Below, in pieces: positions 18,058 to 59,756 of a stretch of DNA of 64,000 nt; the stretch's first letter is position 1; every line of letters starts with the position of its first letter. Made by a program: the position numbers and the translations under genes. A model generated the notes under the pieces. The model was not told the DNA's origin and did no database searches. It saw only the letters and a list, made by a program, of their open reading frames with translations. The stretch lies in the NCBI GenBank assembly GCA_043228905.1, contig JBHGNT010000012.1, positions 4,836,001 to 4,900,000 of the forward strand. The letters run 5' to 3'. The DNA comes from Azolla caroliniana (taxonomy: Eukaryota; Plantae; Polypodiophyta).

Positions 18058-19002
18058 TTATATATCATGACTTTCGTTTGAAGCAGCCAAGTTGTTGAGG
18101 CGCTGAAGGCTCAAAAATGCAGCTTGGCAACCAAGCCGACCATCTCCATGAGCAACAAGGGAAAGGAAAAGTTGTTGTGTCAAGGCTAAACCAGGAAAAG
18201 ATGATCCCATGGCCTGACCCTCTTTGATAGCTGTGCCAAGGTCCTTGACCATATTCTCTGCAAATCCTCCGGGAGCGAAATCCCTCTCTAATATCTTAGG
18301 ACCATAGACATCCATTATCTTAGAACCAGCAGCACCTCCTGATACAGCTTTAAGAAACAACCCCGGGTTGAGACCCGCTTTCTCGGCATAGAGGATGCCC
18401 TCAGAGAGTCCCGTGCAATTGGCTGCAACTGAGATCTGGTTTGCGAGCTTGCAAGTTTGGCCTGACCCAGCAGGGCCCATGTAAGTGACCTTGCCCATAC
18501 ATCTGAAAAGAGGATTGAGCTTCTGGACAGCCTCTTCATCGCCACCGGCGAAGAATGAGAGGGTGGCATGGCGAGCACCGACATCACCTCCGGAAACAGG
18601 GGCGTCAACGCAAGCCACGCCTTTGGAGAGGCCGAGGTCGTAGAGCTCGCGGGCTAGGGAGGGCTCGCTGCTGGTGCAATCCACGATGAAGGAGCCGGGC
18701 TTGAGAGCGGACAAGACGCCCGAGGGGCCGAGGAGCACCTGGCGGACATCGGCGGCCGAGGTGAGCATGGTGAACACTACATCGCTGCGCTGGGCGAGGG
18801 CGAGCGGGGAATCAACTAGGGTGGCTCCCAGGTCACCCAGGGGCTGAGCTTTGCCGGGGGTACGGTTGTAGACTGTGACTGAGAGTGGGGGTAGTAGGCC
18901 AGGGGCCTGCTGGAGGAGGAGGTGGGAGCACATGGGTAGGCCCATGAGACCAGTGCCAATCCAGCCCACCTTCAAGATACCAGGAGCAGCAGCCATGATC
19001 AT
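18058..19002 (-). CDS. Intronless 3-hydroxyisobutyrate dehydrogenase-like / 6-phosphogluconate dehydrogenase-family NAD-binding protein
   Basis: Intact ORF with the Rossmann motif GWIGTGLMG, YNRT, DAPVSGGDVGA and the catalytic-Lys motif GSGQTCKLANQ. Candidate ATGs at 19002 and 18996 (the ORF-track start at 19005 is TTG). Confidence 0.93.
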   Translation of the reverse strand: MIMAAAPGILKVGWIGTGLMGLPMCSHLLLQQAPGLLPPLSVTVYNRTPGKAQPLGDLGATLVDSPLALAQRSDVVFTMLTSAADVRQVLLGPSGVLSALKPGSFIVDCTSSEPSLARELYDLGLSKGVACVDAPVSGGDVGARHATLSFFAGGDEEAVQKLNPLFRCMGKVTYMGPAGSGQTCKLANQISVAANCTGLSEGILYAEKAGLNPGLFLKAVSGGAAGSKIMDVYGPKILERDFAPGGFAENMVKDLGTAIKEGQAMGSSFPGLALTQQLFLSLVAHGDGRLGCQAAFLSLQRLNNLAASNESHDI

Positions 19003-19107
19003 CAACAGAACCTACCTACTTCCCTCCCTCCCTCCTTCCTTCCTTCCTTCCTTCCTTCCTCTGCCTCTCTGCCTCTCCTCTTCCTCTGTCTCTGCCTCCA
19101 GAATTTG

Positions 19108-21499: not shown

Positions 21500-24327
21500 C
21501 TAGCCTCTCCACATATTGAAAGAGCTGACCTTGTTAGGAGTGGCCACCACAAGGGGTGCTTCATCTGGAGATGAATCCACAGTAAATTTTTCATGCATGA
21601 ATTTGCTGTCCACCACTGAAACCTCACGGAGAACCACCTTGTAGCAATAGCAACACTTGAACCCTTTTGCATTCCGATAGCACTCATGAAACTCATCTCC
21701 CTCTTTTACCCTCTGGAAATTCCAGATCACACTGAATTTCCCAGCAGTTGCCACGAGATGCCGCTCATGTTTCCCACTTTCTGTCACCTGTTTCACAATT
21801 CATATGAAACAAAATGCACAAAAACAATAAGTTACATGTTCAGTGACAACATGAAAGAATATTGCCTTTGTATGTCCATCAAATTTTAATAACAAAGAGA
21901 ATGTATAAATATAATGATAGAAGGGTTATTTCAAAACGCTTATGTTTTATATTAGAGGGCCATGGGCGCAAACATAAAACTATGGATCTGATATTATGTT
22001 TCATAGTTAAAGATCATAGTTTAAACAACATTTTCCCCCTTACACAGCATTTGCTAATTCATTTCTTAGTAGTCACCTATCTACCACTTTTCTCCCAAGA
22101 ATTTTGCTTTCAGAATTCACTTTCCACAAGCTTAGATAGAAAATGATAGAATTATCATTTGTAAGGAAATTTTAAAAAAAATGATTTGGAGATATCTTAC
22201 AAAGATAGAGAGAGAAAATAGTTTTTCCATACCAAATGAACATGCATCAACCATTGGTACTGTCAAAAAGTGTGGGAAATAGCATAAAAAGGTGTTCATG
22301 ATTAAGAGAAATGAAAGATTTCTTAAACCCAAATCACAAGATGTTGCAGTAAACACTGTTATTCCTACAAATATTGTAGATGTAGAGAGGTACACAAAAA
22401 TCAAATAGTAACTGGATTAAAGAAAATGTCACCCACCCTTACAAGAAAGAAAAAAAAAGACTCAAATAAAAGAGACAAATGCATGGCAAACATGGCTTTA
22501 TTGCCTACAAAAGAACTGAAAATACAAGCCTATGCATTCATTTGTCATTCCTACAAAAGATTCACATGACTCCACTATCACTTCTATTATCGTTTCTACA
22601 AAGGAACTAACACAGAATAAGATTTAGCACCATGTTAATTCTAAACACACAGGGAAATTTTAAATGAAAAGTGAACCAGAAGATGGACTCACCCAAGAGA
22701 ATTGACCATTCCGTAGCTTACTATCAGGTCCAGCTAGATGAGTATCAAGAGGAGTGAGCTTAAGAAGTCTGGGAGGAGCAAACTTGTTGCCACCTCTCCC
22801 AGAAAACCCTGTCTTCGTCTTCCCATCTTTATCCTTAAACATCGTACTAATAAGGATGAGGTAGCTATCAGTGGTAGCAAGAACCCATTTGCCATCAAAG
22901 GTTACATCAATATGAGTGATCGGTGAGCCTAAACCAGGGAAAGCAGTCTTAGCCATCCTCATGGAGCTATTGCCATACAATCGAACTTTCCCATCTTTGG
23001 AACCAACAGCAACAAATCCATCGCCTGTAGTCGCGAAACACTGGAAATTTGTGCCCCGTGTGAACTGATGCCCATCAGTCCAGTTCAAGACAGGGCTAGA
23101 GATGTCTTGAACAATGCCATGCCGATCTCTCATGTCCCATCGGCACAACCTGTTGTCATCGAGGCCCAGGAAAGTAGAACCAGACACATCAAGCTGTGCA
23201 CCTTTGCTCTCGTTGGTCATGTCAAGCATCGTGATGGGGGTGCCATCCTTCTCGAATTTCCACTCGGCCACAACTTTGCCTGTCGGAAGGTCAAGCTGAT
23301 GGACACCAGAGGAATGCAGCTTATCTGCCGCAGGGCTTAACAGCATCATATTCATCTCTCCCCTCATTAGCATTGCTTTCTTTGGAGTTGAATTTGAATC
23401 AATCCCTGACATTGTCTTCTCATACTTCACAGTCGTTCCTTTGCCACGTACTCCTGATGCCATATTCTTTACTGCTTCAATACCATTATCACTCACCAAG
23501 AAACTATGGTCTAAAGCTCCCATCACTAAACTTTGAATACCTCCCGAGCTTGTCTCATTAAAGGCCTCTTTCAGATCCTTCTTCCCTAAACCAGGGTCTT
23601 TCTCAAATACCCCATCTTCTGCATCTTCCCAAACAGACTCGTCTGCCTTGTGATCAGGGTTTGCCCAATCCATGAAATCCTTCCCAAACACTTTCATCTT
23701 GTTCTCTTCGGTTGCTTCCAGAAGGTAAGTGTTCTCGAAAGTGCAGTTAAGAAATTCGGCGACAAAGTCCTTGTAGTCTTCTAAGGTGAAGAATTTGAGG
23801 GCCCACACACCTTTGTGAACGAAATCCGCACGAAGCTGCTCATCGAAGTACTTCATCTGAAGGTGAGAACCCACACGAGCTTTCACGTTCTGTCCGATCT
23901 GAAGGTTCCAAGATCGGAAACCACCATCGCTGTCAGAGAAATCGTCTTCGTCTTCGTCTTCATCATCATCTGAGTCATCTGCGGATTCGCGATCTCTGAC
24001 AAATTTCCATCTGACGAGCTTTTCGGAGACGATCCACTGTGCTTTAGGAGTGTTACCACCAACATGGCGATAAAGCTTGGCGGTCTGCTTGGCGGCAGCT
24101 GTAGCGACAGCAGGGGTGCGAGAGCCGTTGAGTGAGAGGGAGCTGAGGCTAAGATCTGCCAGGAGCGATGGCGATGGCGAAGCAATCTGTGCAACGGAGG
24201 GGGAATAAAAGGAAGCGGAGGAGGGGGAGGTTTCAGAGAGCTTGGTGGGGGTAGAGGGGTTGGAGGATGAGTCATCTTCGCTGTCTGAGACGGATAAGGT
24301 CCCTTCTCTGCTGTTGGAAGCTCCCAT
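21500..24327 (-). CDS. DEM1: VID27 / CYPRO4 / DEM1-like protein, 2 exons, ~640 aa
   Basis: Exon 1 is 24327-22693 (ends ...GQFSW|gtgag). Exon 2 is 21787-21500 (aaacag|[16 protein letters not shown]...). Motifs [40 protein letters not shown] and [10 protein letters not shown]. The N-terminus MGASNS is a myristoylation-type sequence. Confidence 0.92.
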
Positions 24328-24455
24328 GGAGGGTTATGGTGAGGAGGAAGCTTTGTGGGCAGGTATGCAGGCAGGCAGTAGAGACAGAGAGATATGGAAT
24401 CAGAAGTTATGTCGATCAATGGACGGATGGATGGATGGATGGATAGAATCAAACA

Positions 24456-39302: not shown

Positions 39303-42300
39303 TCAAGCAGCAGTGCAAGTCACCTCCTTCATAGAAGAAACTCTCTCAAACTCGGCTTCCAGGAGCTCGCCATCATGATCCGTATCCTATCCAGAATATC
39401 GTGAGATTTTTACATATCACAATATGTACGTATTGTCTCTTTAAGTTGTGCACATAGACAGGGGCAAAGCCGTGAATTACACACATAAAACTTCTCTACT
39501 AGTTTAATTTAGAGATTTAAACTTCATAGAGAATAATACATGGAAGCTTTAGAGCCTTTGCTTCATCAGGTGGGTCAACCTTTTTAAGCACTCTAAAGGC
39601 TTTCAGGATGAAGTTCTAAACTTCCCTGAGCTCTTAAAATAACAATAATAATAAATCTTACCAGTTCAAAAAACCACGCCATTGCCTTATCCTTTGGCAC
39701 TTTAACTCCGTAGTTTTTGCTTAGTCGTTCAACAAACTCATATGGACCGAGATGTCCAGGTTTTGAAGGCTTCAGATGCCGATAAGGGCACAAGCACTTC
39801 AGTCTTTGAGAGAAGATTTCAACAAATTTGCAGGAGTGATCAAGTAAGGATGCTGCATTGTCTTCTTTGGCCCTGCCAATAATCTACAGAAGAAAAAACA
39901 AACAATCCAGATTGTAAAAAAATGACATTTCTGCAATACATGTTTTCAAGGACATGTACATACATATGTATACCTTTGCAGGACAGCCTACTGCAGTTGC
40001 AAATGGAGGAATATCATTCAAAACAACAGCCGATGCACCTATTTTTGCACCATCGCCGATGTTAACATTACCCAGAATGCTTGCACCTGCCCCAACAAGG
40101 ACCTGTTGTGCATGTAAAAATAAACAAACAAGAACAATTAGCCCAAAAAATGTGAGTGCATTTGTTTCTACATGCATCAGCCAAGAGTCTTTTGATGCTT
40201 CCCACTGGTTTCTATTTTGACAAGATATTTGTTGGTAGATTCACAGGCTTAAGTTTTCGGAGTTTGCTTTAAGCCATACAAGGCTCTGGGAAATCTACAG
40301 ACCCTGTTTTACTACCTTGAAATTTCAGAACCTGCAGGTTGTTCTACATAAACTTCCTCTCAAGTCACCCTTAAGGGAGACTTACTTGACATCAATTTGA
40401 AATAAGTGGATGATCAGGGTCTGTCCACTCCTCCCTCGATGCTAGGTGAGGATCGAATGAAAGGGAAAACATAAAAAAGAAGTGGACAAGGCAGTTGGCT
40501 GCTAAGAGGACCTCTTTAGGGTGGGAAAAAGGACTATAGGTGTGTCCTCATTGTAAGAAATCGCGCTGATGTTGTAGAGATCTCACAACTTTGATGCCAT
40601 GTGAGGAAAGTTATTTGACAGCAGCAGCAGAACAAAGTTAGAAGAAGCAATAGATACACACGGCCAAGCAGCCTATGTTTGTAATTGTACGAACAAAATT
40701 GGGTTGTTTACACAAGTGGCAAGAATAGCTGAGCTATACAAAGTAAAGATGTGGTAGGTGAAGTGGTTGTCTGGTAGCTGAGTGATTGTTGGAGTACCAA
40801 ACACTTACAATGAAGTTATAAATAACTAAGCAGTAAAATCTTAGTTGATAATATATTCTAGAGAGAATTAGGACAGAGTGTGTAGTTCAAGAGCTTCACC
40901 CTCCAATTTTTCCTATATAAGAATGTAATTGTAAAGCTTGTGTTTTGCAGTCTTATGAGGGTGTAGATTGAAGTCTTCAGCAACAGATGATGAGGCTGCA
41001 TTCATTATAAAGCTTATTACGTTTTAGCCTTGAGATCACCCATTTCCTCCTACAAAGAAAATGCATTCAAATGAACTTAACAAACCCAAGGTTTGAAAAG
41101 GATATCAATAAAAAGTGTTTAATATTTTTTGATTGAAATCATGCATACAGTCCCTTTGCGACTATAAAGAGAATGGCTCCTACCATCCCTTCGCTCTTCT
41201 AGAAAAAATCATTAATGCATTTAGTTCAAAACCATGCACACAACCCCTTTGTTTCTATAAAGGAAATGGCTTTAAGAATTCACTTTCCACAACCCAATGG
41301 CATTAAAATTTCTTCACATTTTTGGTTTGACGTCGTGCACACTATATGTTTGCTCCTAAACAATTACTTCGCAAAAAAACACTTTCCATAACCAACAGGG
41401 TGAAACAAATCATGGTTTGGAATTCAGGTTATTACATCAGAGAACACATTTATGCAAAGAATTCCAAAATTGCAACAAATTAGAGGAGGGATTAAACCCA
41501 GTTTATAAGAGAGAAATTGGAGAGAGGGAAAAATAGCACTCACATTTATGCCAAGCTTTGGATGCCGATCACCTTGTTGCTTGCCATTACCGCCTAATGT
41601 GACAGCATGCAGTAAGGTGCATCCATTGCTGACTCTTGCAGTCTCTCCGATGACCACACCCGTGGCATGATCGATCATAATGCTGCTTCCGAGCTGGGCG
41701 GCTGGATGGATATCCATCCCAAACACTTCAGAAATTCGACTTTGAAGAAGGCTGGCCATTGATTTGTAGCCATTTCTCCATAGCCAATTTGAAGCTCTGT
41801 ACGCTTGGATGCCATGGAACCCTTTGAAATACAGGAAAGCATGGCCTAGAGAAGGGCATGCTGGATCCCTTTCCTGAAAAAATATAGAAAGAAGTACACA
41901 AAAAAGGAATAAGATGGCTCCCATCCCTGGAAAAATAGACATAAAACAAAAAATGGACATAAGATATCTCTAAACATATTCAATATGGGATTCTTTTTTA
42001 AAGCATGGCCCAAGGAAGAGACGAAATGTGAGTCACTTTCTTGAAGAATATACGCAAAAATGCTCTCAAGTAATATATGCAAATATGCAAAGTAGAGAAA
42101 AACATTTGTCCCTTTCATGAAAACGAGATACACAAAAAAACAAACACTCTTGAAACACATTCCAATGCATGAAATCTTTTAAAAAGCAGAGAAAAGCATG
42201 TGGCCCAAGGAAAGGTTGACCTTTCGTCCCTTTTCTGAAAAGGGAAAAACAAAGACACAAGGATACAAAATGCTCTGAACCATTGTCTTTATGAAATGCT

Positions 42301-43634
42301 TAGCAAAAGACTCGAGCTTTACTGAGCTTATTGAAGTCTTCTCAAATCATCATACATCCTTTGGTATTTGAAAGAAATCAAAGGTAACTATGACTTCAAA
42401 AATCCTAAAATGCTAAAAGATTGCTGTAGCTACTATTCTTAGGCTTGAACAATGAAAACCTGAAACCCTGCAATGGGTTTATGACCTTAATTTGCCAAGA
42501 AAAAGGCGTGACTTGTTTATTCAAATCACAAATTAATCAATATATCAAACATATCTACTATATTCTTTATACATCTAAAGTCTGAAATCCCTCCCCCTGA
42601 CACTAATAAAATATCAGTGTGATACGGAACAGATTTCATTTCAGAGAAACAAATATCAAGTAGAAAATTCCAAAACCTACTAAATGGTGGTTATAAAACA
42701 AAACAACTTTTGATTTAGCAGAAAACAGGAGTATGCTGAAATATTTTGCCATTAAACCTCTCAATGTCTAAAACCTCGAGCTCTAATAAACTACAATTAT
42801 AGCAAAACAAAACCTCCACTAATGAAAATTAAAAAGATTCCAAAACCTACTAAATGGTTGTTATAAAACTTTTGATTTAGCAGAAAACAGGAGTATGCTG
42901 AAATATTTTACTATTCAACCCCTCAATGTCTAAAACCTCGACCTCTAATGAACTGCAATTATAGCAAAACAAAATCTGCACTAATGAAAATTAAAAATAT
43001 TTAAGAGGAAGATACTAATAAATGAACAATTATACTCTACTCTTTGCGCTGAGAGAGCCCTAGTCCAAACCCATATAAAAATTTATACAATACAACCCAG
43101 CTTCCATTTTGCCAAATTAACAAGACCTGAACAATAACATGTTGCTCAAGTAACCCTACCAAAAGTCCAATACAATACAACACAGGTTTCATTTTAGCAA
43201 TTTACTAAGAATTATGCAGTTTTTCATAACCTAACACTCACCGTAATCAAATATCATTACTGTACGATTTCGCAAGATTGAAACAGACACATATGACTAA
43301 CCTTGATTGCCATCAGGTCCTTTCTCACGATATCATGGACGGATTCTCCAGACCAAGAGGATCCTTTGGTGAAGCAAGAAAGAAGCAGGGATCTCCATCT
43401 CTCAAAAGGAACGGAATCAGAGCTGAGCTTCGAAGCAAGATGAGCGGAAAGAGATTCATCCAAGCTTCTCCACCGAAGGATAGAGTTCTGCAGAGAACCA
43501 TTCAGAATGGCCCTAATTTCTTCAGTATCAACAGCATCCAGAACCATGTCTAAATCTTTATCCACGGGTCCTCCTTCGCTGTTCATGGCCTCCGCGTCAT
43601 TTCTGATCTCTTGCCAGATACAGTCACTAGCCAT
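39303..43634 (-). CDS. SERAT: Serine O-acetyltransferase (SERAT/CysE family) with a C-terminal EF-hand-like extension, 5 exons, ~365 aa
   Basis: Phase-0 GT-AG exons: 43634-43302, 41873-41544, 40102-39974, 39883-39662, 39386-39303. Motifs ERDPAC, YFKGFHGIQAYR, DIHPAA, IDHATGVVIGETA, VTLGG, GDRHPK, GAGASILG and TAVGCPAKIIG. Exons 4-5 add ...AMAWFFEL|DTDHDGELLEAEFERV...TCTAA*. The last exon is less certain than the first four. Confidence 0.88.
42667..42997. repeat. Tandem duplication, ~170-bp unit x2, in SERAT intron 1
   Basis: attccaaaacctactaaatggt.gttataaaac... at 42667 and 42837. Confidence 0.88.
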
Positions 43635-44200: not shown

Positions 44201-47200
44201 CTGTCAACAATAGAGAGAAATGGTGGCCAATTAGCCAGTTAGCCAAGTTCTTGGAAGTGGTTTGCCATGTTTGCCCTTTAGGCCCTCAAACAAGGAGAAT
44301 AATGTATATGTCATTTTATGGATTTTATGAAGGCTTGTAATAGTATTGTGTGCTTCACTGCTTAGCTCATGTTGTGACTATAGGTTCTTGGTGTCTTAGT
44401 AGATATAAATAGGGAATTTATGCACTAGATGTGTTAGAATCAAAACAAGTATATGCTCTTGATGAGTTGGTAGAGGTTGTGGTTGTGATTACCACAATTG
44501 GAGCCTGGAGGAGGGAAACAAGGACATCCCCTCTCTTTCATTTTTATGCAAACGAGTTATCTACTTGCATAATACAAAGATTTAATCATATCACAGTACT
44601 TTGAATGTCGTTGTGGTGGTTACCTTGAAAACCTTGAAAATCTCCAAAGTTGTCTACATGCGGTAAACCTTGAAAACTAGAGGGGCAATGTTTGACACAC
44701 TAAAGCTTGGATAGCAAGACCACAAAGCATATTGGTAGAGGAAAAGTGTGTCATAATCATGATCATATGCATACCAAAGATTAACATTCATGGCCTAGTT
44801 TCCCCCTACATGAAGATATAGGTGCTTGATTTATGGATATGCAACATTTAGTGGCATTGAAAGACATATGTATTGTACAAACGCAAATTTGAGGTTGTTT
44901 GATGCAATTGTAACAATAGGCTTCTAGTGATAATGGCTAGGCTTCATGAATTATGTTTTCCAATGCGTTGTTGAGGGTAGGGACAATAAAAACAAAGGAA
45001 GAATCAAGTGCAATGATAAAATGGCAAAAGAATATCTCGCATTCCAAGATTGACATAGATATACTCCAAGACTTTACAACCTCACAAACGACACCTTATC
45101 ACACAACCTCACAATCTTCACACTCCCCATAACCTTATGGTCCTTAATTGCTTGGTTATCAAGGATGGGGCTCTCAAAGACATCGACAACATCCTTGTAC
45201 TTTGCAAGGAGCTTGTCACAATGCATTGAATGTTAAGGAATTGGTGGGGGTGACCAATCGTTATGCATTGGCCACCCAAATTCTAGTAAATTGATTCTTA
45301 GGATCCACTTCCATGCATTTGTCAATGCTAAGTTGCTTAATAGCTTTGTAAGCATATAACACACTTGCTCTATTTTCAAACAATTTATTAATGAAGAATT
45401 GGATGCATTAAGAAATTTGTGTGCCTTTTGATTTTGCATTTTGCATTTTTCTTTGGGTTGTCATGGCGTGCACTATGTTGACTTTATGATGAGCTCACTC
45501 TTCACGTATTGCTCTTAATCTTTCCTTTTAGTAAACCAATGCTTGAGATCCACGTGTCATGCATTTGGCCAATGATAAATTGCGTAATAATTGGTCATTC
45601 ATATAATTGACTTTATCTATTTTTTCAACGTTCATTATTGATTAAAAAATGAAAGTGTTAAGAAAAGATTGTGTATTGCAACTTTAACCTAGCCATTTCT
45701 TTAATTTTTCTTTGTCACACTACCTGTTGACTTTATGAGATTCTTACACTTCAATTATTGTTCTTCATCTCTTATTGTAGTGACTCAAAATGGTTGTACT
45801 CAACTTACTCCACATAATCTTTTTGAGTATAACTAGATTAACATTGGTTGATTACTAAATTTAACTAAATCTTATGTGATCGTTAAATTTTAGTCCAAGT
45901 TCCAACTCAAGGTCAGGTGAGAAAAATAAGGTTCATTGTAGGTTGTAATATCATTATAACTTAGGACAATGAAGAATTGTACTATATAATGTCCCCATTT
46001 CACTACTACATGGGTTGCAATCTTCAATTTCTATAGATCTTGTGATTTGAATGAAATTTGTTTGATCTATTGAGCCTATAGATGAAGTAAGGTTATATGA
46101 TATTCAAACATGATTATGGATTTTGGCGTTTTTAATCTAAAGGATATTACATAAAGGTTATCAACTATTCACACAGTCATATTAAAAGAATTAGGATTTG
46201 TGTCGTTGAAATATCAAGCTCAATGATCCAACACGTGTGTGATCCTATAAGTAGTGAATGCATGTATGTGGGTCAATTGTGAAACACGTGTATAATCAAA
46301 CACTTGGTGGATGTCCGAGTGTGCATTATAATCCACTCACATACTCTCTTCTCATAACTAGTGTTTTTTTTTTTCCCCAAAAAAACTCCCTCCATTAGTT
46401 ATAAAATTTTACAAATGAAACGATTATGTACAAATCCCTGTAGGGACGCGATAGTTCCATCTTATGTGGATGCCCACTAACTCAAGAAAGGGAGAGGACG
46501 ACCATTGTTGGATGAAGGCTATTCGTTGTCTTTCAACTCCATCGGAGCCGCCTTTGAGGCCATCATATTGGCTCTTTAGAGTGGCTACAATTTCACTCCA
46601 TATCTCTTGCAGTAACCTTGTTGGATGTGCGGTTTGGTTGGAGAAGACTCGCCTACATCGTTGTTTCCATAAAATCCAAAAAGTTATTGGGTTAACCAAT
46701 TCCAACACCTCTTCAGATTTGTCATTAAGAGGAGTGGAGTGGACATTGCCGCTGGAGGAGAAAAAGACCTCTTGTGCTTTTATCACCAAAGTCATCCCCT
46801 CCTCCTGATGCTCGTATCTGCCAACTGGGGTCTGCCATGATAACCAACATATATTTCCCCACTTGATTGAGCCTTGCACCTGGCATAATTGCAACAAGCG
46901 GCCAACCCCCTGCCATATTCGATGGGACGTTGGGCAGTCCCATAGAGCGTGTCGTATTGATTCTATTGTATGTGGGCACTCTACACAATTAGGAGAGCTA
47001 AGGTTCCCACGTTGCCATGCTCCCACCAGTAAGGACTTATGTATTAATAGCCATTGGAACGTGGTAATTCGCCTCACGTGTTGTTGTTTCCAGATTTTTT
47101 GCCAAAACTTGGTGATTATTGTGGGAGGAACTTGAAATGTGTGCCAGACCTTCGCAGCAGTCGACTCTCGGGCAGTTTGAGCAGCTAGAATGTGGCGACC

Positions 47201-47510
47201 CAATCTAGTTGTGAATTGGAAGAAAGGGATGGGTTTGCTTCCTTGTCCCGCGTAAGGATCACGCAATGTCCATTGCAAAGGGTCCCAACTTACCTTATGT
47301 AGCCATGTGTTTTCATGAGTACATATGTGCCAATCAGGTTGTACTTTGATCAGATCAGGATCTACAATCCATTTGTGACCAATATACACGAGTACTCGAA
47401 TTGCGTTATTCTGTGTTGGTGTCTCAGTGTCTCGCAATTCAAAGCCTTCGAGCCTTTCTGGTGGTCCCCTACCTTTTGGGATAAGAGATCCCTCCTCCTC
47501 GTGGCCTATC

Positions 47511-47954
47511 TGTCAGAACCAAGGATAAAAGATAGAGTGATGGAAGAAGGATATTAGAGAACACGAGAAGAAAGGAACCAAATAGTAAGAGAAGAATGGA
47601 TGTATAAGATAGAGAAAGAAAGAGAATGGATACAAGATATGTAATGAGAGCTAAAGACTGGTGTTGATTCGAATTGATTTGAGAATACATGTATGCCCTT
47701 ATTTATAGGTTCCTATAGAATAGCTTAGAGATTTCTAGAATGTTCTAGAATGTTCTAGACCTAGAATGCTCTAGGACATTCTAGAACATTCTAGAATAAT
47801 CTAGAGTTTTTACAATAATCAATGTAGTACAAGAAGTAGCATTTATTGTTTCATATAACAATAAGCTATCTTAATGGTTGAGGTTTTCAAGTATGGATTA
47901 CAAGGTTCAAGGTTCAAGTCTCGGTGACGCCATAATGGTCATGTGTTCATGACA
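47511..47954 (-). mobile_element. Solo LTR inserted in the LINE
   Basis: tgtca...tgaca ends, 5-bp TSD CTATC (47506-47510 and 47955-47959), 444 bp, TATAAATA on the minus strand at 47707-47700. Confidence 0.9.
47733..47796. promoter_or_regulatory. Heat-shock element (nGAAn) arrays in the solo LTR
   Basis: TTCtaGAAtgTTCtaGAAtgTTC (47733-47755) and TTCtaGAAcaTTCtaGAA (47779-47796), immediately upstream of the TATA box. Confidence 0.7.
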
Positions 47955-50900
47955 CTATCCATTTCTCCATTGTCTTCCTTTGAGTAGCATATTCCTTAAT
48001 CAGTAGAGCATTAATGATTTCCGATCTCATAGTCCATCCGCCCCTGATTCCATGGAGTATGTTGGCCTGATCTTGTAGTGGCAATGACATAAACGGTCAC
48101 CAACATTCTATACTTTTTCCTAGACCTTCTGCAATGTATCCCCATGACAACCCCTTACACGATCCCAATAGTTGATTAGATTCATCCTTGATACATGGGT
48201 TCCATAGGATAAGTTGACTGAGCCAGGCAGGTTCAGATCTCAGTTGATCACACTTGAGCCCTTAACGAATGTCACACCATGCCTTCCACATGGATGCACT
48301 GAATCTATCCCCCAATTGAAAGGAGAAACTAGGTTTGAGATCCATGTTTAGAATCCATCTTGTTTGGGGGGCCCAATTGACCCCTTTTCGTGGCCTAAAG
48401 TAAGCAAAACATAACTGCAGTAGCATTTTCCAACAGTCATTTCCTGGTTGGAGTCCTCGCACCACAAATTTGGCAAGTAAGGCTTTCGATTGTGAAAGGG
48501 GATCAATAAGACCCAATCCCCCTCTCGACTTAGGCGTTGTGAGTATAGGCCACACCACCTTGCCGCGAGCTACATGGTCTTCCTTACTAGACCAAATGTA
48601 GTTGTGGACTAATCGTTGAATCTGATGTATACTTTGCCAGCATGATAGATTGTACCATGTTGTTGCAAGTAGTACATGATTTGCCATTATGATGCGACCC
48701 GTTAGCGACAATTTTTTCGAGCTCCAATGTATCAACTTTTGTCGAATGGAATGGATAACGGGTGCAATCATAATCTCCGGCAGTATGTTGAAACCAATTT
48801 GGAAACCCAAATATTTGGTGCTCGCTCCTTGATTGATCCATTTGAAAGCGGGATGTGGGTGCCACGCTGGATGTGTTTCCTAAGAGAGCCATATTGCGCA
48901 GGATTTGTGCCAATTGATCATGGCATTGGATATATTGCAAAATACGGCTAGCCCACTTTCTAGCTTTTGGAGGTTTTCCAAGTCCCTTTGCAGGTAGACC
49001 GCCGTGTCATCTACAAATTCTATATCCAGGATGCTTTGGTGAGAATGAGGTACGGGAAGACCACGTAGGTTGAGATGTCGTGAGTTGAGAAAGCAAGAGA
49101 GTGCTTCGGCGTATAATAGAAATAAGGATGGAGCTAGTGGGCATGCTTATCGTACAGATCGAGATATTCGGAAAAAGGGGCCCCTTTCACTTGCCAGTGA
49201 AACGGAGCTGTTGCCATTCCTATAAAGTCCTGCAATGCCTTTGATCCATGTCTCTTGAAAGCCGAGTTTCCTCATCACACTTTCTAGAAAGTTCTAGCAT
49301 ACCCTGTCGTATGTTCTCTCAAAATCTAGTAGCACCACCGCTACCTTGTTGTTAGTATGCTTGGCAAGGGCTACTGCTTCCCAGAATGAGAAGAGGTTGT
49401 CTAGGATGCTCCGATTTCTAACGAACCCTATCTGGGACGGATGAATGAGTTGAGGGAGAAGTGGTGTTAAATGGAGTGCCACGATTTTTGCGAGCAACTT
49501 ATAGACAATATTGAGAAGAGTTATGGGTTGCCACTTGTGAATGTCGTTGGCATTCCCATCACTTTTAGGAATGAGATGTATCATCCCCTATCCAAATTCC
49601 TCCGACATGCTTCCCGAGGTGATGATCTCCTCATATGCCTGGAGGAGGACTTCTTTAATAGTGTCCCAAAGGCATGTGAAAAAATGCGGGGTGAGGCCAT
49701 TGATTCCGGGGCAACTATCAGCATCTAAATCAATGAGGGCCACCCATATCTCGATGATTGATAGGGGACGCACAAGCCATGTATTCATTTCCGACATGAC
49801 TTTCTTGGGTATGCTTTGGAGGATAATATCTTCTCTTATGTCTTCCCCTGTAGCTATAACGTATTTGGTAAGTAGGCGGTTATAGTAACTGGTGGCAATA
49901 TTCCTCATTTCGTCGCCATCCTTAGTGGTCATTCCATCCTCTTAGTTGAGGCTACACATCACAATTCTAGCGTGCCTCGGGCCTTTGGAGTGGAAGAATT
50001 CCTTCGTGGTTTTGTCCCCTACTCAAATCCATCGCGCCATGCTTCCATGAAACTCCATGTCATATATTTCCTTTTCCGCCATGCTAAGTTCATGTTTGAC
50101 CGTGGCGACTTGTCCTACGATCCAAATACATGACGAGTATCTCTGTTGGAGTCGTTGTAAGGCTATTAGTCCCCGTTTTGTCCTCTATCGCTTCTCCTGA
50201 GCATCCTTGCTTCTAGTCTTGACAATCTCATGTAGGAGAGTTGAAGCTCTTGTTAATTTAGCTAGAAGTTTGTCAGATGTTGTCTCATAACCAGTGTTGG
50301 GCAATGTTTTTAATTCCTACCGGAAATTTTTCCTACTCATTAACCGAACTAGATTTTAAAATTTTTACCATACCATTTTCTTATGAGTGTTTAGGTTTGG
50401 ACTTCTTGAAACTAAATACTAAATCATATAACATGAACATTATGTAGCAAAATTAACTAAAATCTTTCCAGATTTCACACAATGGCAACTATGGTAGTGC
50501 ACTATTGAGATACTTGTAAACTTCAATTCTCTAAGCATCCTTCATAAATAAGGAATGAAATAAAAAATCCTTGCAATGGCAAAAGACAACAAAAAATGTA
50601 AAGGGAATGTCTTAGAGTGTGATGTCAAAGGCATTAGAAAATTACTGAATTTCCATGCAAGGTCTCAACATTTCCAGAAAATTGCATAATTTCCAATACT
50701 GAAACATTTGCAGATTATGAAATTTGTTGAATTTCCATTTAAGATCTTTGCACATCTCTCCCTAAGGTTTAATTCCTCTTTCATGATATGAAAAGGCAAC
50801 ACAAGTAGCATGCCAATGTTGGGTTGAGTAAAACAAATTACTTTTTGGATAGGTTGGGGGAAACTTGATCTATAGAGGTGTTTAGAGATATTCCGAGAGG

Positions 50901-54388: not shown

Positions 54389-57300
54389 TGTCGAATACAA
54401 GTGTATAATGGACGTATTCACACTATCCCTTTCTATAGCTCAAGTTTGGGCCATTTGTGTAATTAGCATAAAGGGTAGTTGCCCTAAGTTTGTCACTATA
54501 TAAAGTGACCTAGTAACCTTTTTGTAAGGTTGGTTGTATTATTGTTTCTATGGAATAGAAAGAGTCTTTTGTGCCTCCTCTCTCTCTCTCTCTATCTCTG
54601 TGCACGATCTTGATAACTGTCATACGCAGGTACTCAACAGCTATCGAATGCTACTTGATCTTCCGCATTGACGGCCTTGTCTACAACATTTGGTATCAGA
54701 GCCTGTCTTCCTCAACCCGCTGTCGGCCGTCGTCACAGCCTGCACAGTATTCGGCCTTTCGCTTCATCCCAGTCTGCAAAGCATTCGGTTTCCTGCGTCA
54801 TTCGAAGAAACAGAGAAGAAAGTAGGCAAACACAAGCTTGAATCTCGCTGCGTTAGATCATCACTCGGAGTAAGCCAGTCGGCTGTACTCTACGTCCTTG
54901 ATCGTAACTGCTTGAGGTGGGCTTCCTGCACAACGACGACTTCAAGGACAACCGAAGTTCGCGTTTCATTCGATTGGACAATAATCGGAAGGACCAGTCG
55001 GTTCCATTGCTCTCACCGTTGCAGTCAACCGAAACCGAATCGGCTTGAAGTACTGTCGGATCGTTAAATCTAGGTTCAACTCGACTAAGACAGTTGTCGG
55101 TAGTCAATCCGAACCTAATCCCCGATTCTCCGTAATCAACATCACTTGTGTCCAACTTCGGCTAGAACGACACTGAGTGGGCCAAACCGCTGCACTTCAC
55201 CAAAGTTCGTAGCCGACTTAGGGCAGAGTCATGACATCAACATCCGGCTCGTCAGAAATGAGTCTACGAAAGTTCGATGGATCGAACTTCAACTTCTGGA
55301 AGGAGCAAATGCAGGACTATCTCATAGTCAAGGGGCAAATCGATCCCATCGAAAATGAAGAACCTCCAGAAGGATACAAACCAATTGAGTGGCAGAAGCT
55401 GGACAGAATCGTCCGCGCCACGATTCGGATGCACCTATCGGAATCGGTATACTTTACGGTGCAATCGTGTACGACAGCATTCGAATTGTGGAAAACACTG
55501 TCGGACACCTACGAAAAGAAGGTCGCTGCAACGAAGATGTTTCTGATCCGGCGCCTCTACAACTTGCGGATGAAAGAATCAGATTCGGTTCAAGCACATC
55601 TCAATGAGTACGAAAGCATAAGCTCCCAAATCTCATCTCAGGGGACGGCAATCGAGGATGAACTCAGAGCAATGATACTCATGAGCAGCCTTCCCTCATC
55701 ATGGGAAACTTTCGTCACAACCGTGTGCAACGCGTCAACCACGGCTGTTAAATACTCCGAAGTCACGAGCGCAATTCTGACCGAAGCAGCTCGGAGAAAG
55801 TCTTTCGCCAAAGACTCAACAGACGACGCTTATGTAGTACAAGGTTCGACAGACCGATCGAACATACGAGGAAGAGATTCCTCACGGCAGCCGAACAATC
55901 AGCGAAGACGGAGCCAGTCACGGGATAATCGAATCTGCAACTATTGCAAGAAACCCGGACACATCAAAGCCGACTGCCGCGCACTCAAGAACAAGAATGA
56001 CAAGTCTCAGAAATCAGACAAGAAGAGTGGCCGGCATGAGGAGATCAATTACGTCAGCTTCTCAGCTGATGTGCTACCAAACGACCCGAATATACTATCA
56101 ATCGAAAATCCAGTCGGAACAGAAGTTCTGCTCACGACTGAAGAATCGAGCACATGGCTCTTAGATTCGGGTGCGTCATTTCACGTGACTCCTCATCGAT
56201 CCCAATTTCGACAATATACGATCCGTCACTCCGACTCAGTTCGAGTCGGCAACTCACAACACTGTGACATCATTGGAATCGGCACAGTAGAGCTCAACCT
56301 TGCAGGTGGCTCTACACGTGTACTTCACAATGTCCGACATGTACCCGAGCTCTCAAGGCCATTGATCTCAGTCGGACAACTAGATGAAGACGACATTCGT
56401 GCCGGTTTTTCTTCGGGAGGGTGGACACTCCACAGGGGGAACCTCCTGCTTGCTAGAGGACCCAAGATACACTCACTGTATCCGTTACATGTTACGCTCA
56501 GAGAGGGTAACCTGTTTTTGGTGGATATTCCTGTGTCATCACTATGGCACAGAAGATTAGGACACCTCAGCAAGGCCGGCATCACGCACCTATCTAGAGC
56601 CGGATACATCCCTAAACTCTCCTTCTCGGACCATCAATTCTGCGAACACTGCCAGTATGGCAAACAAGCAGCCGCATCACACCCGACATCAGCACCAAGA
56701 GAAACGAGACCTCTCGATTTAGTCCACTCGGACGTCTGTGGCCCAATGCCGCATCAGTCTCTCGGCGGTGCCTCTTACTTCGTCAGTTTTATTGACGATT
56801 CGACTCGAAAGGTGTGGGCTTATCCAATTCGCACCAAAGATCGTGTCTTCTCGATCTTCTCCGATTGGCTCGCTATGGTAGAAAATCAAACTGACCGAAA
56901 ACTGAAATGCTTTCGGACCGACAATGGGGGAGAGTTCAAATCAGAAGAATTCGTCAAAATCTGCCGACAACGCGGCATCCGACGTGAATTTACGGCACCA
57001 CAGAGTCCGGAGCGAAACGGGATTGCAGAACGCATGAATCGGACAATCCAAGAACGGATAGTTTCCATGCTCCAACACTCTGGACTGTCGGATGGCTTCT
57101 GGGCAGAGGCTCTACTCACGGCAGTACACATAATCAATATGTCGCCAAGCAGACCTCTAGGACTTCAAATTCCTCAGGAACTATGGATCGGTAGTAAGCC
57201 GAATTACGACAAGCTGAGGATCTTCGGATGCGAGGCGTACGCTCTTATTCCGAAAGATGATCGCCGAAAACTTGCACCTCGGTCCAGGAAATGCATTTTC

Positions 57301-59756
57301 CTTGGATATGGATCAGACGGCGAAATGGGATACCGACTCTGGGACCCCGAACGCAGACAAATCGTTCGAAGTTCGGACGTTGTGTTCAACGAGTCGGCTA
57401 TGAATCCATCAGTCAAAACACCGATCGAAGTCCGAAGGGTAACATTTTCCGATGTGCCGACCCTTCAAGAAGGCCCCGCTCTTAACACACGGTCAGCTTC
57501 ACGGGTAGCTGAACCTTACACTACCGACTCGGACAACTCTGACTCGGCACAGCAGAATAATTCGCTTTCGGACCATCCGACCTCGATACCCGATACGACC
57601 AGTCCAATCATACCTCGACGATCCGAGAGACTGTCGCACCCTCCGGAGAGGTATTCTCCTGGAATTTTCTTCACCGATGGCGGCGAGCCGACGTCTTACG
57701 AAGAAGCATCGACATCTGTCGATTCAGCCACCTGGCATCTGGCGATGGAGTCGGAAATGCACTCCATTCGGGCAAACAAGACTTGGGATCTGGTCGAATT
57801 ACCTAAGAATCGACGTGCTCTTCCTTGCAAGTGGGTTTATCGACTAAAAGAGACGTCTGATTCGACCACCCCAAAGTACAAGGCCAGATTAGTTGCGAAG
57901 GGCTTCCGACAAGAATATGGCGTCGACTTCGACGAGATTTTTTCACCAGTGGTGAAAATGACAACCCTTCATTTTCTACTTGGCGTAGTGGCAGCCGACA
58001 ACCTGGAGCTGATTCAGCTAGACGTCAAAACAGCCTTCCTCCATGGTGATCTTGAAGAGGAAATTTATATGGAGCAGCCAAAAGGCTTCGTGGCAACTGG
58101 CCAAGAACATCTAGTCTGCCGACTCAGGAAGAGTCTATACGGCCTCAAACAGGCACCGCGACAATGGTACAAGAAGTTCGACGACTTCATCCAATCGATC
58201 GGCTTCTCAAAAAGCGATGAGGACCATTGTCTTTTTACCCACACAGCTCAAGATGGATCACCCATCTTCCTCATCATTTACGTGGACGACATGCTAATTT
58301 CTGGACGCCACGCGGGCGAACTTGCCGATCTCATTCGGCAATTGCGGTTGAAGTTTGCCATGAACGACCTCGGTCCGGCACGACACATACTCGGCATGAA
58401 GATTAGTCGGCATCGCGATAAACGACATCTTTTTTTGTCTCAGACCGACTATATCGGACGTGTCTTGGAACGCTTCAACATGCAATCAGCCAAATCTGCT
58501 TCAACCTCGCTCCCCATGAATCTTCGGCTCTCTCAGCGAGACTGCCCGACATCCGGTCCGGAGGGGGAAGATATGAAGTCGGTACCGTATGCACCGGCAG
58601 TCGGCTCCCTTATGTACCTGATGGTCGCGACACAGCCTGATATTTCTCATGCCGTAGGAGTCGTTAGCAGATTTATGCACAATCCTGGCCGATCGCATTG
58701 GAACGCAATCAAGCATGTGTTCAAATATCTGGCTGGCACAAAAGACCACGGCATTCTTTTCGGTCCGAACTCAACCTCAGGCGTAGTCGGTTACACCGAC
58801 TCGGACTTCGCCGGCTGTATAGACAGTCGGAAATCAACAACTGGATACTGCTTCAAATTCGGCAATGGAGCAATTTCGTGGAAGTCGAAACTTCAGGAGT
58901 GCACAACGACCTCAACGACCGAAGCAGAATATGTAGCTGCGTCCGACGCTGCAAAAGAAGCTTTGTGGCTCGGCCGGTTGGCGCACACGTTTCGACAAGT
59001 CGATCATGACTCAACCCCAGTTGTCTATAGCGACAGTCAAGGTGCTGTTGCCTTGTCGAAAAATCCGGTCCACCACAACGCCTCCAAACATATCGACGTT
59101 TGATATCACTTCGTTCGGGACTGCGTCATTTCAGGGAAAATCGGTCTAGAGAAAATATCCACAACCGACAATGTCGCAGATGGAATGACCAAGTGTCTTT
59201 CGGCAGACCGCTTTCGGTCCCTTCGGCATCAGATGGGCGTAACGACAAACCAGTCCGGTTAGAACCGGACACAGCGCAGGATGGTTTCAGACAACCGACA
59301 TCAGTTCCTTAATGATCGGCTTCAACTCTTCCGACCCGACCAGTCCGGTCTTCTGCCTTCGGACCCTGCCGACTCGAACAAAAACTGATATGTCCGAGAA
59401 CTTAGGTTTATACCTGTAATCTTAGATAACCCATGTATACGCCCATTACGGGGGAGTGTCGAATACAAGTGTATAATGGACGTATTCACACTATCCCTTT
59501 CTATAGCTCAAGTTTGGGCCATTTGTGTAATTAGCATAAAGGGTAGTTGCCCTAAGTTTGTCACTATATAAAGTGACCTAGTAACCTTTTTGTAAGGTTG
59601 GTTGTATTATTGTTTCTATGGAATAGAAAGAGTCTTTTGTGCCTCCTCTCTCTCTCTCTCTATCTCTGTGCACGATCTTGATAACTGTCATACGCAGGTA
59701 CTCAACAGCTATCGAATGCTACTTGATCTTCCGCATTGACGGCCTTGTCTACAACA
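54389..59756 (+). mobile_element. Very young full-length Ty1/Copia LTR retrotransposon (Tnt1/Tork-like)
   Basis: 300-bp LTRs at 54389-54688 and 59457-59756, identical by eye. TSD TAGCG at 54384-54388 and 59757-59761. PBS tggtatcagagcc at 54691. PPT gggggag before 59457. Confidence 0.97.
55231..59262 (+). CDS. Copia gag-pol polyprotein with one premature TGA at 59101-59103 in RNase H
   Basis: 1290-aa ORF with CNYCKKPGHIKADC, WLLDSGAS, HSDVCGP, RTDNGGEF, YKARLVAKG, YVDD and YTDSD. The same frame continues KHIDV*YHFVRD...NVADGMTK to TAG at 59260-59262. Confidence 0.93.

Follow-up and report, generated by a model that had tools for sequence, protein, structure and literature searches.

We analysed a window of 64,000 nucleotides from the fern Azolla caroliniana (assembly GCA_043228905.1, contig JBHGNT010000012.1, positions 4,836,001 to 4,900,000 of the forward strand). 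A five-exon gene on its minus strand (43634-39303) encodes a serine acetyltransferase (SERAT, also SAT) core that is continued by an EF-hand-type extension. SERAT opens cysteine synthesis and limits it, and its accepted control consists of the cysteine synthase complex together with cysteine feedback. The product has 365 amino acids and one stop codon, and introns 1-4 are all GT..AG introns in phase 0. The parts of the gene, in coding order, are as follows.

43302..43634, minus strand: exon 1, which carries the start codon and codes for the helical domain at the N-terminus (SATase_N, Pfam E 7e-8)
41544..41873, minus strand: exon 2, catalytic core with ERDPAC, DIHP (41714), DHATG (41672) and DRHPK (41570); both junctions seen in contigs
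39974..40102, minus strand: exon 3, end of the left-handed beta-helix, up to GCPAK (Pfam Hexapep E 9e-7)
39662..39883, minus strand: exon 4, which codes for the feedback-type segment, a linker, the degenerate first EF hand and the helix that leads into the second hand
39833..39883, minus strand: feedback-type segment (residues 265-281), aligning with soybean SAT up to the MDH motif
39737..39790, minus strand: CP[F/Y/W]RxL motif and the first EF loop, whose positions 3 and 5 lack acidic ligands
39387..39661, minus strand: intron 4, phase 0, immediately ahead of D1 of the EF loop
39303..39386, minus strand: exon 5, with the second EF loop (39386-39351), the helix leading out of it and the stop codon

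Gene model and catalytic core

The original prediction of a SERAT core fused to an EF-hand pair is borne out by this five-exon model, by Pfam and by contigs that cross the splice junctions. Ten sequencing runs were listed and five examined (X1-X4 and X8); they were classed as RNA by the guess of the search tool only, none being on record as such. The 39662/39386 junction, at which intron 4 is skipped and which the prediction had proposed, was seen in contigs of four out of four runs, from four studies; it is bridged by more than 31 letters on both sides only in X1 (211), the short side being 28-30 in X2-X4. Introns 1, 3 and 4 are skipped in all four runs, intron 2 is skipped exactly in three, the fourth being one letter off, and exon 1 is covered by contigs and joined to exon 2 in 4/4. 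Two DNA contigs of a relative (L001 and L002, 92-93% identical, one allele set) carry intron 4 unspliced with the same GT..AG ends, so that the joined exon 4-5 form is the result of splicing. Exons 4-5 of these contigs differ from the window by 15 base changes and one residue change, at the non-ligand loop position 2; exon 4 alone has 12 base changes and no residue change. In the run contigs, seven differences fall within exons 4-5 and all are silent (among 40 of 227 differences listed). We regard it as solid that the gene is a real, expressed and conserved fusion of a SERAT core with an EF-hand-type extension. Within intron 1, a tandem duplication of about 160 bases was noticed by eye (about 42990-42670), and a contig of run X4 skips 42705-42922.

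Pfam assigns SATase_N to exons 1-2, followed by the hexapeptide beta-helix in exon 3. DIHP, DHATG and DRHPK are intact in the joined protein, as had been predicted, and RDPA, DIHP, DH and DRHPK, which we take to be the catalytic and substrate motifs of serine O-acetyltransferases, are all present. Column conservation of the core is 0.86, and the substrate motifs are all kept. The TIGR01172 cysE model was run on four relatives; its cut-off (210.65) was passed by P0012, P0018 and P0003 (223.8, 216.2 and 216.4), and P0022 fell narrowly below it (208.8). The closest solved structure to the core is soybean SAT (PDB 4N69), which can be aligned with the Adiantum ortholog P0012 as far as soybean residue 274 of 286, at the MDH motif. 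The EWSDY(V/I)I tail is absent from the window protein, which ends CTAA, and from all 19 EF-bearing clade members (see below), one of which has a terminal Ile. The protein is a member of the serine acetyltransferase family outside the complex-forming groups, and it is predicted to be active on serine. The start codon is the first in-frame ATG of the open stretch. No transit-peptide-like leader precedes SATase_N, so the enzyme would be cytosolic.

The C-terminal extension

One intact and one degenerate hand at 37-residue spacing had been proposed, and both the motif positions and the spacing proved correct. The second EF loop (DTDHDGELLEAEF) starts at 39386 (residue 339), 37 residues after the degenerate first loop, which starts at 39772 (residue 302). 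The predicted arrangement, two helix-loop-helix units at a distance of 37 residues with a canonical loop in one of them, resembles EF-hand pair domains (Pfam EF-hand_7; calmodulin and centrin lobes, S100). The first hand of the window protein differs from these in that its entering helix, which begins at an invariant Cys-Pro, is very short, and in that it has no ligands.

Conservation of the loop in orthologs, on which the prediction depended, extends beyond ferns to a lycophyte, to liverworts and to streptophyte algae: the EF loop is present in 19 of 25 clade rows and in none of eight outgroup rows. Over the 19 proteins, the ligand positions are held by D1 in 19, D/N3 in 19, D/N5 in 18, G6 in 19, a hydrophobic residue at position 8 in 19 and E/D12 in 19, and positions 2, 7 and 11 vary freely. 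Canonical EF loops have a small or polar residue at position 9. This position is Leu in the window protein and five other fern proteins; the remaining 13 have T, S, N or E. Twelve of the 19 pass a strict EF-loop pattern of the PROSITE type. When residues 265-365 were shuffled 100,000 times, a relaxed pattern arose in 10 of the shuffles, and none of 94 SATs outside the clade contains it.

Outside the intact loop, G267, E271, A275 and D279 of the feedback-type segment are invariant in 19/19, as are C296, P297, R299 and L301 of the motif at the first hand. Mean column conservation is 0.76 for residues 265-281, 0.69 for the second hand and 0.37-0.48 for linkers and tail. That the feedback-type segment is kept and that Leu9 is confined to fern members are points beyond the original prediction. 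The protein ends Cys-Thr-Ala-Ala (39317-39306, minus strand), an end kept in L001 and L002 and a possible prenylation box; other ferns end LAKD or LAKE.

Each of the 12 full extensions in the alignment matched Pfam EF-hand_7 with E no higher than 0.1 and a lowest value of 1.3e-8, and precomputed Pfam EF-hand matches exist on Marchantia, Riccia, Calypogeia and Diphasiastrum proteins. Exon 5 alone gave a weak Pfam EF-hand match (E 0.17), and exon 4 alone gave no EF-hand match in the Pfam scan. A profile of the extension matched 403 solved sequences, with EF-hand proteins leading. A two-hand fold is predicted: AlphaFold2 modelled P0012 as a core plus a two-hand domain (pLDDT 76-90), and the fold neighbours of this domain are mostly EF-hand proteins, S100 among them. 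In an atlas search, exon 4 fell near EF-hand clusters at 0.85-0.88, which is a lead only, and the Marchantia protein matched ordinary SAT clusters only. A complex prediction of the EF domain with three catalytic cores and calcium, made without an alignment, gave no answer (score 0.00).

Distribution, paralogs and genomic setting

Relatives were sought with exon 2; 8000 candidates were scored and 120 listed. P0001 and P0002, which head the list, were set aside as bacterial-type proteins that contain an internal repeat. After these two, 23 of the next 24 matches listed form one group, whose listed members come from ferns (Adiantum, Ceratopteris, Pteridium), a lycophyte (Diphasiastrum), liverworts (Marchantia, Riccia, Calypogeia) and algae (Coleochaete and the Zygnematophyceae Netrium and Spirogloea), with Logan proteins in addition. 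No seed plant or moss member is among the 120 matches listed, which is moderate evidence from incomplete searches. The clade set comprises 25 rows including the window; near-duplicates or shorter forms (P0025, P0026, P0132, P0148), isoforms (P0124, P0126, P0143, P0144) and cut Ceratopteris copies (P0007, P0141, P0142, P0145, P0146) were left out. The Marchantia polymorpha gene of the clade is MARPO_0010s0095.

A tree confined to the catalytic core (49 rows and 248 columns; root not established, seed-plant SERATs not included) places the 25 clade rows on one side of a branch with support 98/99. Algae lie outside; liverworts (99/96) come next, followed by Diphasiastrum and by a fern group of 12 rows (100/98), to which the window belongs and which identifies it as fern DNA. 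The core-only tree follows plant phylogeny. Spirogloea is on a long branch and the clade on its own long stem branch. The Marchantia proteins show reading-frame breaks at window introns 1, 3 and 4, which fits one fusion origin before the liverwort-fern split, and the algal members would place that origin before land plants. On sequence evidence, the EF-hand SERAT is an old clade, kept from streptophyte freshwater algae to ferns.

A word search with exon 4 alone gave no match, and an exhaustive search with exon 4 gave four matches among 1.84 billion representatives. The extension-profile search is uninformative on absence, because EF-hand proteins crowded its matches and known Marchantia, Riccia and Diphasiastrum members were missed. 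A metagenome scan returned four loci, including L001 and L002; L003 and L004 were dropped, no SAT being seen in them.

Six clade rows are without the loop: P0014, apparently frameshifted, and five B paralogs, which are specific to ferns. Four of the latter (P0003, P0005, P0011 and P0013) retain the core together with the helix ahead of the loop, have lost the EF loop and end in a conserved CVCST, possibly a lipid-modification or metal site. The fern A and B paralogs are thus a natural pair with and without the loop, in which B is a natural control. Beside the cut Ceratopteris copies, which look like a recent dispersed duplication, stands a full-length locus (KP509_05G029700).

The other features recognised in the window are the following, the LINE-, copia- and gypsy-like labels resting on motifs.

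18061-19011, minus strand: gene of the 3-hydroxyisobutyrate/6-phosphogluconate dehydrogenase family
22663-24333, minus strand: VID27/DUF7135 protein gene
46427-49500, minus strand: LINE-like remains upstream of the SERAT gene, with retroelement-like frames
55222-59100, plus strand: unbroken copia-like frame of 1293 codons
61678-63984, minus strand: gypsy-like frames

The VID27/DUF7135 and dehydrogenase neighbours have no evident link to the SERAT gene.

Relation to known SERATs and possible calcium control

Soybean SAT, SERAT groups 1 and 2 and bacterial CysE share SATase_N, the beta-helix and the motifs with the window protein and can be aligned with it through the MDH motif. Groups 1 and 2 and CysE end about 12 residues past MDH in EWSDY(V/I)I, which docks into OAS-TL (O-acetylserine thiol-lyase; PMC4330696), whereas the window protein continues into the EF-hand pair. 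Tomato SERATs of groups 1 and 2 have one and no intron, respectively (PMC9533716), and the window gene has four. The missing Ile tail was rightly predicted, but its novelty was overstated: AtSERAT3;1 and AtSERAT3;2 of group 3 and grape VvSERAT2;1 also lack the terminal Ile (PMC9533716, PMC9426629, PMC4330696), and these are known not to bind OAS-TL. Group 3 proteins likewise have a C-terminal extension. The excerpts of PMC4330696, PMC9426629 and PMC9533716 mention no EF hand for group 3 or VvSERAT2;1, and the intron-rich structure of group 3 is not shared, tomato SERAT3;1 having nine introns against four in the window gene (PMC9533716).

No SAT joined to an EF-hand pair was found among the 22 solved SAT sequences matched. 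A SERAT/EF-hand fusion was undescribed in the literature searched, which included few subscription papers. The excerpts of PMC8137854, PMC11350084, PMC2275785, PMC6862689 and PMC3606967 do not describe it, PMC5985473 gave no matching passage, and the excerpts of PMC8003530, whose tree includes three Marchantia SATs, lack the term EF-hand. PMC5154754 concerns another EF-hand gene. An EF hand is auto-annotated on several public clade proteins. Provisionally, we regard the EF-hand SERAT architecture as new to the literature.

A calcium input to SERAT has a precedent. Liu et al. (2006) are said to have found a soybean SERAT controlled by a CDPK (a calcium-dependent protein kinase), and phosphorylation of SAT by soybean CDPK reportedly releases feedback. 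Calcium input would be common to both systems, but the sensor there is a separate kinase and here a sensor-type domain within the enzyme itself. Soybean CDPKs phosphorylate a SAT after oxidative stress (PMC4702179). When cysteine is bound to known SATs, their C-terminal region obstructs the acetyl-CoA site, an inhibition that is relieved when OAS-TL binds the Ile-ended tail (PMC4330696). We favour a scheme to which we give an even chance: the EF-hand pair replaces the OAS-TL-docking tail, and putative calcium binding at the intact loop repositions the feedback segment, so that O-acetylserine output would be tuned independently of the cysteine synthase complex. With about 85 residues after the MDH-type motif, in place of 12 that have Ile at their end, the enzyme would not bind OAS-TL and would stay out of the complex. 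Calcium would bind the second hand, with the first as structural partner, and the change would be relayed through a variable linker of 14 residues to the segment 265-281, whose counterpart in known SATs closes over the acetyl-CoA site on binding of cysteine. Since this segment is retained just after the beta-helix, feedback is not necessarily lost. The analogies of OAS-TL binding and, in seed plants, of calcium-dependent phosphorylation point to activation, through release from cysteine feedback, as the likeliest sign. A bolder version is that the clade is a fourth, undescribed plant SERAT class, older than land plants and lost in seed plants, that is switched directly by calcium and in which the EF pair acts like OAS-TL or the kinases; we hold this possible but somewhat doubtful.

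Several observations weigh against such a switch. Six of the 19 EF-bearing proteins fail the strict pattern because of Leu at position 9, and P0020 fails it by Lys5. The P0012 extension scores 21.5 bits, below the curated Pfam cut-off of 30. Its fold matches are middling, with none at E<=0.001 and the best (Z 7.9, rmsd 1.9, 59 aligned) to a DENND3 domain. The P0012 linker (303-346) is not resolved in the AlphaFold2 model, and therefore coupling of the EF pair to the active site lies outside that model. Ligands occur in one hand only, so there would be no cooperativity within the chain. Five fern B paralogs have an intact core without the EF loop, P0006 among them being merely cut after the core, and the five cut Ceratopteris copies, at five loci on five chromosomes, are near-identical and end before the loop.

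Contigs covering intron 4 are present in all five runs examined, so that some retention, which according to the original prediction would count against it, or pre-mRNA exists alongside the form spliced in four of four runs. Retention would stop the protein 22 residues on (39661-39593, minus strand), removing the sole intact loop, and a regulated calcium-blind form is possible. One could go further and take the retained form as the true product, the EF loop being a gene-model artefact or a chance motif. In run X8 the intron 4 contig has depth 99 and the exon 5 contig 60, although contig depth is no measure of retention, and loop-less isoforms are annotated in Ceratopteris (P0144) and Marchantia (P0124). 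The spliced junction, the recurrence of the loop in 19 proteins across the clade, the single residue change among 15 base changes in the relative and the rarity of the pattern among shuffled sequences already largely refute this idea, which we consider highly improbable. It is also improbable that the clade acetylates a substrate other than serine, or serine poorly, so that any calcium link would not be to cysteine synthesis. The long stem branch and the score of P0022 just below the cysE cut-off would fit, and group 3 SERATs are described as having minor activity and perhaps substrates that are unknown (PMC4330696). Conservation of the core with all its substrate motifs, the three of four members that pass the cut-off and the activity of the long-tailed tomato SERAT3;1 (PMC9533716) speak for serine.

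The remaining alternatives accept the extension as functional. The EF pair may be a structural or partner-binding module rather than a switch: constitutively carrying Mg2+ or Ca2+, or no ion at all, it would determine the oligomer state or the location of the enzyme and simply exclude it from the cysteine synthase complex. One degenerate hand and Leu9 in ferns agree with this, as does the helix that fern B paralogs retain before the lost loop. The invariant non-ligand residues C296, P297, R299, L301, F314 and F335 suggest a conserved surface or core, and the fold neighbours include S100 proteins, which form dimers. Against it, ligand positions are conserved from algae to ferns while adjoining loop positions vary, and position 12 is E rather than D in 17 of 19; E12 is the calcium-preferring form of the EF loop. 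On balance we find such a role rather unlikely. Nor do we give much credence to the extension being mainly a thiol or heavy-metal sensor, with C282 and C296 and perhaps Cd2+ or another metal in the EF loop adjusting O-acetylserine for glutathione and phytochelatins. C296 is present in 19/19 and C282 in 17/19, four B paralogs end CVCST, and Arabidopsis SERATs bear cysteine modifications (PMC9426629). However, both cysteines lie in a poorly modelled part, so no geometry supports a pair, and the acidic loop is conserved as well as they are.

Replacement of the docking tail by a calcium-responsive EF pair remains our preferred reading. With the fusion, calcium signals would probably adjust sulfur metabolism directly. 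As read from the sequences, the architecture and its age are solid and surprising for the field, and the calcium mechanism is plausible. A calcium-sensor-type domain at the position of the docking tail, from algae to ferns, points to a different and older SERAT control, one that possibly linked calcium signals directly with the supply of thiols at about the time plants moved onto land.
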